Part shown: positions 18,005 to 28,477 of the stretch, one piece after another
How positions within the stretch are numbered: the stretch's first letter is position 1
How the letters are laid out: the number at the start of each line of letters is the position of its first letter
Sequence record: MH791411.1
Length of the DNA: 64,000 nt
Reading direction: 5' to 3' (one strand)
Source of the DNA: Escherichia phage Ecwhy_1
The notes under the pieces: generated by a model
What the model was told of the DNA's origin: nothing
Database searches by the model: none
The model's input: the letters and a program-made list of their open reading frames with translations, nothing else
Position numbers and translations under genes: made by a program

Positions 18005-19489
18005 TTATCCCGCTGTATTTTCCCAATCCTTAACATCTATGATACTATGAGGATATTGTGCTTCCTTATAGTATTGTAAACGTTCACGTAAGTGTTTTGC
18101 ACTATATTTGTTTGTACCACTGATATCAAAGATTTCCACGTGGTCTTTGTCTTCTGCACGACGCAACCCACGACCAATGGACTGTATTGTACGAACGAAG
18201 CTTTTTCCTGGTTCGATTAGAACGACATTATACAAACGAGAAATACTGATACCAGTACTTGCTACCCCATAGGTTGCAATGAGTATTTTGTTATCAGCCC
18301 AGCGAATTTCACCATATGAAGATTCACGGTCTTTCTTTTTGGTTTCCCCACGAACAAATTCTGACTTAGGAATACCCAAAAATTCACAAAGCAATTCACC
18401 AGCTTCAAGTCTATCAACCAGTACTAAAGTGTTTCCAGATTCTGCTAACGCACCTATCAGTGATGCTACATATGCCATTCTATCACGGTCAGTAACTAAG
18501 TACTTCAATTCTTCTGCATATGACGCGAACTTTAAATTACTTTTAAGTTTAATACAGTTCACATTACATGTGCTTAGTATTTTTTTATCTTGTAATTCTT
18601 TAGCTGTGATTTTAAATATCACATCACCAACGTTACATTTAATCTTCGCAGCGACAACTTGGTCTTTAGGGATTGTACCAGTTAATCCCCAGCGAAGTGG
18701 GACGTTATTCATAACTTTAGAGAGTACTTGAACTAATGCATCACCACCAGCACCTTGACACTCATCGACAATCACACAAACCACACCATCAATAAAGTCA
18801 TGAACGTCTTGTTCAGTCAGTTCAATTTCACCTTTCTTTGTTTTCTTCCACAAAGAGTTGAATGACTGCCATGTAGTGATTGTGTGTTGGTGACCAAAGT
18901 CTTTCTGTGCACCATAGAACACTCCAGTGTCAAGACCACACATAACATAGTCATCATATGTTTGCTGCACCAAATCAGTACTAGGTACGATAATCACAGA
19001 ACGTCCATACTCTTGTACCTTCTTGGATAATGCCGCTGTGATGAGCGTTTTACCAGCCCCTGTAGCTGCTAATAATAAACCATGTGGGTTTGCAAGGCAA
19101 GCATTAACTGCGTTCACCTGATGCTCTCTGAGCTTGATTGACTTACCTTCCATGTGGTGTCCAGCACCAAACACAACATCACTAAAAATATCTTCATCAA
19201 TTGGTTCAAAATTGAATCCATAATTGACACGATGATCTTCAAGTTCAATATCAATTTTTGCTTCATCTAAGATTGGCAACAACTTATCCAACATGTGGTA
19301 GTAAGTACTGCCACCTAAGTTCATAAACTGTACCTTACCATCCCAACGACCAATACGACCAGCAGGGGTGAACTTAGCGTATGGAAGTACATATTCTGTT
19401 GCACGAATCATCTTCTGACGAATTGAGGGATCTAGTCCCTCAAATTTACAATTAACCTCGTCCAGTAAGGTTAGCTTACAAGTTTTCAT
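18005..19489 (-). CDS. uvsW: SF2 DNA helicase, UvsW-like
   Basis: 494 aa; Walker A ATGAGKT, DExx box VIVDECQ, motif III LTGT; next to uvsX as in T4-like recombination modules. Confidence 0.75.
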   Translation of the reverse strand: MKTCKLTLLDEVNCKFEGLDPSIRQKMIRATEYVLPYAKFTPAGRIGRWDGKVQFMNLGGSTYYHMLDKLLPILDEAKIDIELEDHRVNYGFNFEPIDEDIFSDVVFGAGHHMEGKSIKLREHQVNAVNACLANPHGLLLAATGAGKTLITAALSKKVQEYGRSVIIVPSTDLVQQTYDDYVMCGLDTGVFYGAQKDFGHQHTITTWQSFNSLWKKTKKGEIELTEQDVHDFIDGVVCVIVDECQGAGGDALVQVLSKVMNNVPLRWGLTGTIPKDQVVAAKIKCNVGDVIFKITAKELQDKKILSTCNVNCIKLKSNLKFASYAEELKYLVTDRDRMAYVASLIGALAESGNTLVLVDRLEAGELLCEFLGIPKSEFVRGETKKKDRESSYGEIRWADNKILIATYGVASTGISISRLYNVVLIEPGKSFVRTIQSIGRGLRRAEDKDHVEIFDISGTNKYSAKHLRERLQYYKEAQYPHSIIDVKDWENTAG

Positions 19490-20370: not shown

Positions 20371-20832
20371 TTATTCTAAACGTGCATCTTCAATACCAGC
20401 AGCACGTAGTCTCACAATATTGTTTAACTGAAAAGCTTTCATCTCTAAGGATTTAACAATACTGGAAAACGTATTACGGATATATGATACTTCATTTATT
20501 AGTTCGGATAATTCACAAACTTCTTTATCACCTTCAACATACTTTTTACAGTCAGAAGATGAGAGTGCTCGACGATATGCTTCAAGGAAATATTTAAACT
20601 TTTCAGCTTGTAGTTGACGCATTTCAATTTCTAGCATTTCAAGTACCGCTTCTAGTTCTTGAAGCTGACTGAGACGAGTCTCATGCCAGCCTGGAATCTC
20701 CTGAGCAATCTTTTCAATGATGCCAATCTTTTTAACTTCACGACGAGCTTCTTCAGTTTCTTTTTCGAAGTGTTCAATCATGTCGATTATTTTAGATTTA
20801 TCATCTTTGATGATCCAATGCCAAGGTTTCAT
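20371..20832 (-). CDS. hypothetical coiled-coil protein (possible UvsY-like mediator by position only)
   Basis: 153 aa between uvsX and the exonuclease; helical/charged; no sequence signature recognised. Confidence 0.4.
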   Translation of the reverse strand: MKPWHWIIKDDKSKIIDMIEHFEKETEEARREVKKIGIIEKIAQEIPGWHETRLSQLQELEAVLEMLEIEMRQLQAEKFKYFLEAYRRALSSSDCKKYVEGDKEVCELSELINEVSYIRNTFSSIVKSLEMKAFQLNNIVRLRAAGIEDARLE

Positions 20833-21950
20833 TATTCCTCACTACTTCCAATATCAGTACCAAATGATTCATCACCTTTTTCTTCTTCTTTGACTTCTTC
20901 AATCAAAGGGTGACGTTTGAATTGATTCATAACTAAATCAAGACAAGAATCTTCATTACGCATCCATTCTTTACGATATTTTAGAATCTGTTCACCAGTG
21001 TCAATATCAACGTACATTAGACGGTTACCAGATTTAACGATAAGTTCATATTTCTCGAACATATCTAGTAGACCACTGCGTGGGTCCATACCTTTATCCC
21101 AAGGAATTTTAATCTCAACATCTTCAAATGGTTTGTTGTAACGAGTCTTCATGACTTTACATTTAGAACGAATACCACTTACATCTGAAGTCTTGTTGCC
21201 TTCTTCATCTTCTTTAAGTTTTAGTTTACCCATTGCGATAACCATAGAAGATGCATAAATCAAACCACTACCACCAGATACTTTTGGATCAGGGTTGAAC
21301 ATATCTTGGGATTCATAACTATGGTTTACACAAACCATACCAATGTTAAGTGAACCAATCGAGTTTACGCAGTTGGTGATGTAAGCTTTAAGCTGTTTAG
21401 GTTTGTGACCCATATCACCTTTCAAGTTACCAGCTTTCATCTGGTCATTAGCAACTTCAGTATTCAACATACCAATTGAGTCGATAATGAATAATACTTT
21501 TTGACGTTCTTCTTTAGGAGTATTTTCGTATTCTTTACGATACCCTTCGATGAACTCATAGGTAAATTTAGCAACATCACCAATCATACCCATGTTTACT
21601 TTTAGTAGTTTTTCTTCTGAAGTGTCTACACCTAGTGCTTGTAGCCAATCTGAATCCAATGCGTTCTCGGAATCAATCATAACAACAAAGATACCTTGTT
21701 GTTGTGCTTCACGGGCGATGTTTCCAGAAACGATAAATGATTTACCAGAACCAGATTCACCAGCAAACATTGTTACTTTACCTAGTGGAATACCACGGTC
21801 AAAATAACCACTAATACGATAGTTCAAAGCAAAGTTACCAGTACTAATCCATGTATCAGGATCATGAAAGCCTACGCTAACACCAGTATTCTTTTTAACG
21901 CTACCAGTACTATTTTTTAGAATGTTTGCAAAACCACTTGTCATTTTCAT
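20832..21950 (-). CDS. uvsX: RecA-like recombinase UvsX
   Basis: 372 aa; Walker A GESGSGKS, RecA-fold Walker B region VVMIDSENALD, size near T4 UvsX. Confidence 0.88.
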   Translation of the reverse strand: MKMTSGFANILKNSTGSVKKNTGVSVGFHDPDTWISTGNFALNYRISGYFDRGIPLGKVTMFAGESGSGKSFIVSGNIAREAQQQGIFVVMIDSENALDSDWLQALGVDTSEEKLLKVNMGMIGDVAKFTYEFIEGYRKEYENTPKEERQKVLFIIDSIGMLNTEVANDQMKAGNLKGDMGHKPKQLKAYITNCVNSIGSLNIGMVCVNHSYESQDMFNPDPKVSGGSGLIYASSMVIAMGKLKLKEDEEGNKTSDVSGIRSKCKVMKTRYNKPFEDVEIKIPWDKGMDPRSGLLDMFEKYELIVKSGNRLMYVDIDTGEQILKYRKEWMRNEDSCLDLVMNQFKRHPLIEEVKEEEKGDESFGTDIGSSEE

Positions 21951-21970
21951 AATTCGCTCCTTGAATTTTA

Positions 21971-22001
21971 TGAAATAAAACGGGGCAAACTCCGTTGCCC
22001 C
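21971..22001 (-). terminator. putative rho-independent terminator (GGGGCAA-loop-TTGCCCC, T-run on minus strand)
   Basis: GC-rich hairpin between the gp32-like stop and uvsX start. Confidence 0.5.
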
Positions 22002-22019
22002 TTAACTTTTCAAATACTA

Positions 22020-23069
22020 TTACTTACCTTGTTGTTTCAAACGAGCAACTAGTGCAGATGCAGAAAGTTGTTCTTTTGGAGCTTCAGCTACTGGTGCTGG
22101 TGCAGCAGCTACTGGTTCAGCAGCAGGAGTAGGAGTAGCTACTGGTGCTTGCGGAGCAGGAGTTTGTGCAGGAGCAGGTTGTTGTACTGGAGCTTGTGGA
22201 GCAGGTTTGTTTTCACTAATAGTACCAGTTGTTGGTTTTTGTACACCTGCTGGACGGTAAGCGAAAGCCCAACGTGCAGGGTCATAAGGTTTACCATCAA
22301 CAGATGCTTCGAACATTTCTTCGATAGCTTTTAGTTCTTCTGGAGTTGGTTGTTTTGGCATAAAATCATTTAGATTATATAGACCAAACTTTTCAATCGC
22401 TGCCAGTTCTTCTTCATTGAGTGGACGCTCGGACATGGAGAATTGAGACATGTCATAGCTATTGTAACCACCACCATTCTTAGTTTTAACAATACCAAAG
22501 TCACGACCGTGAATGTAGTGAGTTGGTAGTTCTTTGATGCCTGGGTTTAGCAGGATAGATTTAACTTTATCAAAGATATCTTTGTTAGCTAGGATACGAC
22601 GGATTGGGTTTTCTGGAGCAATATCGTCTTTTACTGCTACGCTATCAGGAGCAACGAAACATTGCATTAGATAGGTTTTCTTTTTCCAGTAACGACCAGC
22701 CATTGCTTTCAGTTCTTCGTTTCCAGTTTCATTCGCACTTTGGAACCATTGACGTACTTCTTTAAGAATTGGACATGATTTAGGAACCCACATTTCGTTA
22801 CATGGTACTTGAACGGTAACTTTATCGGTGTGCATACCAACAATACCTTGGAACGTTAGGTTGATCATATCACGTTCACGCCAGAAGAATGGGTTAGACT
22901 CATCAGCATCTGGTAGAAAACGTAGGTTTAGTGGTTCATTGTAAGGGACATTCCAGAAAGCTAGGAAAGAATCGGCTTTACGTTCACCTGTAAATGTACC
23001 ATTCTTCTGTGCTTCTGCTTTTTCTTGTTCAGCTTTTAGTTTTGCACGAATTTCAGCTAGAGTTTGCAT
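22020..23069 (-). CDS. single-stranded DNA-binding protein (T4 gp32-like)
   Basis: Preferred start at second ATG (AAGGAAG 7 nt upstream). LRFLP motif, Cys/His zinc-site-like residues in OB core; C-terminal tail is Pro/Ala-rich rather than acidic. Confidence 0.7.
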   Translation of the reverse strand: MQTLAEIRAKLKAEQEKAEAQKNGTFTGERKADSFLAFWNVPYNEPLNLRFLPDADESNPFFWRERDMINLTFQGIVGMHTDKVTVQVPCNEMWVPKSCPILKEVRQWFQSANETGNEELKAMAGRYWKKKTYLMQCFVAPDSVAVKDDIAPENPIRRILANKDIFDKVKSILLNPGIKELPTHYIHGRDFGIVKTKNGGGYNSYDMSQFSMSERPLNEEELAAIEKFGLYNLNDFMPKQPTPEELKAIEEMFEASVDGKPYDPARWAFAYRPAGVQKPTTGTISENKPAPQAPVQQPAPAQTPAPQAPVATPTPAAEPVAAAPAPVAEAPKEQLSASALVARLKQQGK

Positions 23070-23242
23070 ATTGGGCTTCCTTGTCATTAGTTTGTTTGTT
23101 AAGTTTTAACGGGCTATTAACGTTGATTTGTCTTCATTGACTCATCAACAATTTACATTATATCATGGGATTTTTAACCGTCCCAAGGTTTTTTTACTCT
23201 GTTTGTCAAGGCTCATTGCCCTGACAAACATCATTATATCAC

Positions 23243-28477
<5,235 letters not shown>

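Follow-up and report, generated by a model that had tools for sequence, protein, structure and literature searches.

gp32 is the textbook model of how the tail of an SSB (a protein binding to single-stranded DNA) gates DNA binding and recruits partner proteins. What does such a tail do when it is rich in proline and alanine, is not acidic and ends basic? This question is raised by the ssb gene in a stretch of 64,000 nucleotides (hereafter the window) of Escherichia phage Ecwhy_1 (sequence record MH791411.1), to which an earlier note, made from the sequence alone, had drawn attention because of its tail. The reading that we favour, and which we regard as likely though clearly short of certain, is that the product is a gp32-type protein of replication and recombination whose tail combines a flexible spacer with a conserved tip, and that this tip is a probable partner-docking motif. 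The parts of the gene are as follows (residue ranges from the model made with AlphaFold2, AF2, are accompanied by its confidence score, pLDDT, the predicted local distance difference test):

22020..23069, minus strand: ssb coding sequence (CDS) for a gp32-family SSB, 349 amino acids plus stop; stop codon TAA at 22020-22022.
23004..23069, minus strand: N-terminal helix, residues 1-22 (MQTLAEIRAKLKAEQEKAEAQK), putative counterpart of the cooperativity (B) domain of T4 gp32.
22242..22979, minus strand: DNA-binding core with an oligonucleotide/oligosaccharide-binding (OB) fold, residues 31-276; AF2 pLDDT >90 throughout.
22068..22241, minus strand: low-complexity spacer rich in Pro, Ala, Gln, Thr and Val, residues 277-334.
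22023..22067, minus strand: conserved C-terminal tip LSASALVARLKQQGK, candidate docking motif, residues 335-349.

The core of this SSB is gp32-like on several independent tests, by profile search (Pfam, hhalign) as well as by structural comparison, as the earlier note had supposed. Residues 55-251 match the Pfam family PF08804 with 29.8 bits (E 7.6e-7), a narrow margin over the cutoff of 26.8 bits. The match to phrog_1192, 'single strand DNA binding protein', covers profile positions 2-326 of 326 (E 1.4e-97), and in hhalign a 62-sequence family profile aligned with a profile of nine T4-like gp32s (97.7%, E 1.4e-12) across both the N-terminal helix and the core. These nine proteins, which form our T4-like comparison set, come from T4, Aeh1, a KVP40-like vibriophage, an Acinetobacter phage, a cyanophage, a Kuttervirus, a Campylobacter phage, a Stenotrophomonas phage and another vibriophage. 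Among PDB sequences the family profile matched only RB69/T4 gp32 (E ~5e-6); a PDB sequence search with the single protein returned nothing except noise from the low-complexity tail (EB1, ZO-3), gp32 emerging only with the family profile. NCBIfam holds no model for the protein. A Foldseek search with the AF2 model retrieved 2a1k (E 1.3e-9), 1gpc (E 1.4e-8) and 8gme, all within a range of 1e-9 to 7e-7, the next match having an E of 0.09; the target-normalised template modelling (TM) score against the RB69/T4 gp32 cores is 0.66-0.69 (1gpc 0.69). Sequence identity to the T4 core, in contrast, is only ~17%.

The protein thus appears to follow the three-part plan of gp32, in which a core with an OB fold stands between a cooperativity helix at the N-terminus and a flexible tail at the C-terminus. 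It shares with T4/RB69 gp32 (PF08804; 1GPC, 2A1K, 8GME) the OB-fold core, a predicted N-terminal helix that aligns with the B domain, a flexible tail with a Leu-rich end, and the position of the gene among uvsX, uvsY and replication genes. The N-terminal helix is predicted at residues 4-22 (AF2, pLDDT ~70) and aligned by hhalign to T4 residues 8-22; a start like the Lys/Arg-rich KRKST of T4 is missing, and M-x-[ST]-L-A-E-I-R-A-x-L is near-invariant at the N-terminus throughout the family. A difference from T4 concerns the zinc site, in which two of the four ligands are kept: Cys90 (22800-22802, minus strand; T4 Cys77) and Cys99 (22773-22775, minus strand; T4 Cys87), both in the 349-residue numbering, are invariant in the family and lie inside a P-C-N-E-M-W…S-C-P segment. 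The positions of T4 His64 and Cys90 are occupied by neither His nor Cys, and the full His-Cys3 site is absent. Metal binding may have been lost, or may take place via other ligands; because several of the T4-like gp32s in the nine-protein alignment likewise lack ligands, the zinc site is not universal in the gp32 family.

The tail, taken as the 74 residues that follow a conserved Y-R-P-A-G, has a net charge of +2, consists to 43% of Pro and Ala, and includes four Glu, no Asp and no aromatic residue. The earlier note had described a non-acidic, Pro/Ala-rich tail that ends basic; this description holds, the tail it quoted is exact, and the difference from the T4-like proteins is clear. Their tails are acidic in 9/9 cases, with net charges between -1 and -11 for the last 60 residues (-11 in T4) and between -3 and -7 for the last 15, whereas the last 15 residues here (LSASALVARLKQQGK) have a net charge of +3. 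The acidic Ser/Asp-rich segment of T4 is absent, and the function proposed for that segment probably has no counterpart in the SSB of the window because the tail is non-acidic and ends basic.

Within the tail, the spacer (residues 277-334) contains 25.9% Pro, 25.9% Ala and 12% Gln, no Asp, no Arg and no aromatic residue, with a net charge of -1. Pro and Ala account for 30/58 of its residues versus 15% in the core (binomial P = 1e-10), and with an entropy of 2.87 bits, against a median of 3.96 for the protein, it is the lowest-entropy stretch of the whole sequence. AF2 leaves residues 277-336 without secondary structure, with 10-residue block means of pLDDT between 43 and 58, and according to this model the spacer is probably disordered. 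Two open reading frames (ORFs) overlapping the tail DNA, 22068..22334 on the plus strand and 22139..22300 on the minus strand in another frame, were rejected as genes: their translations are of low complexity (e.g. WCWCSSYWFSSRSRSS), and the repetition of GCA/CCA codons accounts for them.

For the comparison among relatives we examined 120 homologues at 44-100% identity and 148 further representatives drawn from a profile search of 1.84 billion clustered proteins, which returned 1006 clusters at E <=1e-3, 285 of them at E <=1e-30. Among homologues the spacer is hypervariable, with tails of anything from 27 to 107 residues, and close relatives carry Pro/Ala, Thr/Val/Pro-rich or Ser/Thr-rich versions of differing lengths; identity to the window protein amounts to 26-59% in the spacer versus 50-96% in the core. 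Compared with the congeneric phage PBECO4, the spacer shows 24 amino-acid changes, 5 gap columns and 13 synonymous-only codons, the core 11 amino-acid changes and 54 synonymous-only codons. The alignment with relatives that the earlier note had proposed as a check accordingly gave a divided answer: the Pro/Ala run is unremarkable linker variation, but the conserved last 15 residues are not part of such variation. The ~58 uncharged, Pro/Ala/Gln-rich residues would evolve freely in sequence and length and are most likely only a flexible tether.

Phage CMSTMSU (L014, MH494197) was dropped from the comparison of linker insertions and deletions between near-identical phages, as its record is UNVERIFIED and its ssb is split into short 'hypothetical protein' CDSs. 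The ssb region of CMSTMSU is 12 nucleotides (nt) shorter than that of the window. The fragmentation is probably an assembly or sequencing error and not biology.

What deserves attention is not the ordinary Pro/Ala run but the conserved basic tip: these 15 residues, which the earlier note did not single out, are the candidate functional part of the tail. The tip follows roughly the pattern [ST]-x-x-[DE]-[IL]-[LVI]-A-x-[IL]-[KR]-x-[KR] in the family, and S-A-x-x-L-V-A-R-L-K-Q-Q-G-K in the window protein. Almost every complete homologue, even at 44% identity or below, terminates in this motif: it is C-terminal in 113/120 close and 113/148 distant homologues, many of the remainder being fragments, against a background of 0.6% (24-residue core windows, strict motif). 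The closest homologues listed (P0001-P0009) have the same tip or one that differs at a single residue, and compared with PBECO4 the tip shows no amino-acid change. A second full copy inside the linker is found in ~20-25 proteins of the family, spread over several lineages of which the Klebsiella RaK2 group (P0023, P0025, P0026) is one, and these additional copies fit a modular short linear motif.

Could the tail be without any function as protein, the spacer being a product of slippage and the tip being preserved because the 3' end of the gene is constrained as DNA or RNA, for instance by a terminator or by a signal that serves the downstream uvsX? The coding DNA of the spacer does contain weak repeats of 21 nt and 18 nt (22085-22126 and 22153-22193), only 1/15 tip codons differs from PBECO4, and a hairpin follows the gene:

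21982..22001, minus strand: terminator-like GC-rich hairpin plus T-run, GGGGCAACGGAGTTTGCCCC then GTTTTATTTC; 19 nt past the ssb stop, between ssb and uvsX.

However, relatives of 44-60% identity, as well as hundreds of clusters at 50% identity, keep the tip at the protein level with other residues and hence other codons, and the second copies of the motif lie inside linkers, far from gene ends. Moreover, a single synonymous change in 15 codons fits the rate of the core, at which ~3 would be expected. We consider an explanation without protein function highly improbable.

The favoured reading, in which the tip is a docking motif, can be set against what is described for T4. There, according to a 2024 study of gp32 and Dda, residues 248-270 of gp32 bind Dda as a helix via Ala255, Val258, Leu262 and Phe265, and not via acidic residues, while the acidic segment 273-301 has been proposed as a separate element that occupies the cleft for single-stranded DNA (ssDNA) and regulates ssDNA binding (PMC11551737). 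No counterpart of the 248-270 helix was recognised in the SSB of the window. The ends of the T4-like proteins (DLDDLLNDL, DLDDLLNEI, ELNDLLNGL, ELDALLADL) are likewise Leu-rich, and have D-L-L-x-x-L in common with the DLLAKL of the jumbo-phage family (ALVARL in the window protein).

On this basis the tip would be the functional contact point of the tail, probably folding into a short helix on binding, and its most likely role would be to keep proteins of replication or recombination attached to ssDNA that is coated with SSB; the candidates are UvsY, UvsX, the polymerase, and the helicase or its loader. Docking would rely on the hydrophobic stripe L-[VLI]-A-x-[LI] and its flanking basic residues. 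By analogy, docking of this kind probably comes close to what the T4 gp32 helix does when it binds Dda, and is not fundamentally different from it. The tail, on the other hand, probably lacks an electrostatic, DNA-mimicking self-inhibition of the type proposed for T4 273-301; acidic self-inhibition is not expected because the tail is almost without acidic residues. T4 gp32, for its part, shows a kinetic block that depends on its C-terminal domain. The different mode of partner recruitment that the earlier note had suggested is thus upheld in part: the acidic segment is indeed absent, but the Pro/Ala run is ordinary linker variation, and docking is likely to be T4-like.

Several observations weigh against this reading. 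A helix is predicted at residues 337-347 of the tip, although only at low confidence (AF2, pLDDT 53-60). The idea of an amphipathic tip helix was rejected: the Eisenberg hydrophobic moment is 0.35 compared with 0.33 ± 0.15 in shuffles, and because it does not exceed the shuffles we do not call the tip amphipathic. In many family members the linker is moderately acidic, with charges as low as -12 or -14, from which it follows that the loss of acidity is a trait of the enterobacterial jumbo-phage clade and not of the family as a whole. Finally, the likeness of the motif to the DLLNDL end of T4 comprises ~4 positions and could be due to convergence.

An alternative to partner docking is that the tip copies the N-terminal cooperativity helix and docks on the SSB core of its own or a neighbouring molecule, thereby tuning cooperativity or giving rise to multivalent networks or condensates. 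The N-terminal helix of one T4 gp32 molecule binds to helix 141-152 of its neighbour (PMC11551737), and the site corresponding to this helix would be the docking site of the tip; T4 141-152 aligns with a conserved segment of the window protein, NKDIFDKVKSIL, for which AF2 gives a helix at 163-173. When a profile of the tip is compared with that of the rest of the protein, the N-helix is the single best local match (La-x-lr-x-r versus L-x-x-iRak, P 0.01), and the best site of a tip position-specific scoring matrix (PSSM) is the N-helix in 91/119 proteins. Likewise, the best match of a family-tip 9-mer in T4 gp32 lies in the N-terminal domain (LAKLNANKG versus MAKLNGNKG, 7/9), and all tip matches of >=6/9 start at T4 positions 5-15 (shuffle P ~0.01). 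The second motif copies in linkers would raise valency further. However, scores with the PSSM are low, at -3.5 bits in the window protein itself, both P values are only ~0.01, the counts derive from related sequences and are not independent, and the resemblance was noticed post hoc; helices rich in Ala, Leu, Lys and Arg resemble one another easily. Docking of the tip in cis, which we also looked for in the AF2 monomer, was not placed confidently (tip pLDDT again 53-60). Taken together, we judge docking of the tip on the SSB core itself rather unlikely. If it were true, each monomer would carry two to three 'stickers' joined by a neutral spacer, with possible consequences for the control of filament cooperativity or for condensate-like ssDNA assemblies in jumbo-phage replication. 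The wider proposition, that a large and mostly metagenomic gp32 subfamily has replaced acidic self-regulation with a competition of the N- and C-helices for one core site, we likewise give a small, though not negligible, chance.

Another possibility is that the basic tip makes an auxiliary contact with nucleic acid, adding ssDNA affinity or bridging DNA segments instead of docking on a protein. A charge of +3 over 15 residues would suit this role, as would the family-wide conservation of basic residues past the hydrophobic stripe, and in T4 gp32 the basic N-terminal domain is also needed for DNA-binding cooperativity (PMC11551737). Yet at its best-conserved positions (L, V/L/I, A, L/I) the tip has hydrophobic or small residues, often after Asp or Glu (DLLAKL, DILAMIR), a pattern typical of protein-protein motifs but not of contacts with DNA; the motif has no aromatic residue, and the net charge of the tip varies across the family from -1 to +4. 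We regard a role in nucleic-acid contact as improbable, and return to docking on a partner protein as the preferred reading.

Two candidate partners of the tip are encoded directly downstream of ssb:

20832..21950, minus strand: UvsX/RecA-like recombinase, candidate partner; PF00154, phrog_97 (E 2.4e-69).
20371..20832, minus strand: UvsY-like recombination mediator, candidate partner; phrog_231 (E 1.1e-25), annotated as UvsY in vB_Ec-M-J.

ssb heads a co-oriented block in which uvsX and uvsY are joined by genes for a polymerase exonuclease subunit and for a helicase (18005..19489), and the synteny of ssb, uvsX and uvsY is conserved. The UvsX-like protein has an acidic C-terminus, ...EEVKEEEKGDESFGTDIGSSEE, with a net charge of -6 over its last 30 residues (window 20832-20921), and the counterpart in a marine relative (L011 8086-8175) has an acidic tail too (-8). 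This charge is opposite to that of the basic SSB tip, and a link between the two is speculation.

The window derives from an Asteriusvirus, a Rak2-like jumbo coliphage. In this region its DNA is 99.8% identical to that of EC.P1, WPEC5, vB_Ec-M-J and fEgEco12 and ~86% to that of PBECO4 and 121Q; the SSB itself is 100% identical to that of EC.P1, fEgEco12, Turkey3 and WPEC5 and 84% to that of PBECO4 and 121Q. Relatives in PHROG 1192 comprise Asteriusvirus PBECO4 and 121Q, Klebsiella RaK2 and K64-1, Cronobacter GAP32, Pectobacterium CBB and Pseudomonas PA5oct. These Rak2-like SSBs belong to the same family and possess the same architecture and tip motif, and differ in the sequence and length of the spacer alone; those of the RaK2 type have the second tip copy in the linker.

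For the start of ssb there are two in-frame ATG codons, at 23069 and 23087, the latter adding six residues. The ATG at 23069 is the better start because a Shine-Dalgarno-like AAGGAAG lies at 23076-23082, 6 nt 5' of it, because no such sequence was found upstream of the ATG at 23087 (23085-23087), because orthologues open with M-x-[ST]-L-A-E-I-R-A, and because relatives in GenBank, e.g. phage vB_Ec-M-J, have the gene annotated as a 1050-nt SSB CDS. Some database entries, such as P0001 (355 amino acids), begin at the ATG 23087, and others (P0012, P0017, P0020) have still longer N-terminal extensions; such longer N-termini are probably start-codon miscalls. Upstream of the gene lie a candidate promoter and a neighbouring gene:

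23157..23186, minus strand: sigma-70-like promoter candidate, TTGGGA-18-TATAAT with TG, 5' of ssb; a consensus match only.
23243-24547, minus strand: upstream neighbour of 434 amino acids, between the terminase genes and ssb; full-length match to phrog_13484 'virion structural protein' (E 1.8e-254).

Because promoter-like sites in the region are no commoner than in shuffles, the evidence for this promoter is weak. No Pfam domain was found in the 434-residue neighbour. The order terminase, ~450-residue virion protein, SSB and RecA-like protein is kept in a marine relative whose SSB is 48% identical. When the marine metagenome contigs L011/L012, of up to 85 kb, are compared with window positions 20371-26000, a protein of ~150 residues follows the RecA-like protein, and its C-terminus resembles that of the UvsY-like protein of the window.

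The layout of the tail also recalls bacterial SSBs of the E. coli type, whose OB domain is followed by an intrinsically disordered linker: both have a low-complexity, variable linker (Pro/Gln/Gly- or Ala-rich) at the end of which sits a short conserved tip. The C-terminal tip of E. coli SSB is …DDDIPF. In contrast to this acidic, aromatic tip, that of the window protein is basic and aliphatic, and the core families are unrelated: Pfam gave no match to PF00436 (bacterial SSB) in the protein. LSASALVARLKQQGK does not end in Pro-Phe as the bacterial C-terminal tip (SSB-Ct) does, and the tail is free of aromatic residues and Asp. An acidic-Pro-aromatic motif does occur in the linkers of ~35/268 family members (DDDIPF, DEDDEIPF, DDEPPF, DDLPW), among them P0097, P0111, P0112, P0114, P0132, P0134, P0138, P0147, P0164, P0186, P0191, P0207 and P0263, and also in two T4-like gp32s, those of Aeh1 (L002; EDDDVPF) and Campylobacter PC5 (L005; NDNPPFE). 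The window protein has lost it, and its linker (22068-22241) is without the motif. Given its close resemblance to the bacterial tip, this motif might serve to attract proteins of the host that bind SSB.

The gene is already annotated as SSB in several GenBank records. Some orthologues are labelled 'structural protein' (KM507819, 121Q gp6; MH383160, UB; NC_071039, PA5oct), and these labels may stem from virion mass spectrometry. In the main text of the omics paper on PA5oct the SSB is not mentioned, and literature searches on jumbo-phage or gp32 tails and on the PA5oct virion proteome gave no account of the tail architecture of Rak2-like SSBs.

If the tip is an ordinary docking motif, our results amount to an incremental refinement of annotation. 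Such an SSB is nevertheless a natural 'acid-free' gp32 on which each function of the tail can be tested, and the 15-residue tip is a ready bait for partners in the replisome and recombination machinery of jumbo phages; these SSBs could also act unlike T4 gp32 in isothermal amplification chemistries of the recombinase polymerase amplification (RPA) type. For the family, our data delineate a large gp32 subfamily (at least 285 clusters at 50% identity, E <1e-30, including the Rak2-like jumbo phages) that has kept the fold and the N-helix and bears a conserved basic end motif. In its enterobacterial clade this motif sits on an uncharged spacer, which would separate two functions that are entangled in T4, acidic self-inhibition and docking through a motif.

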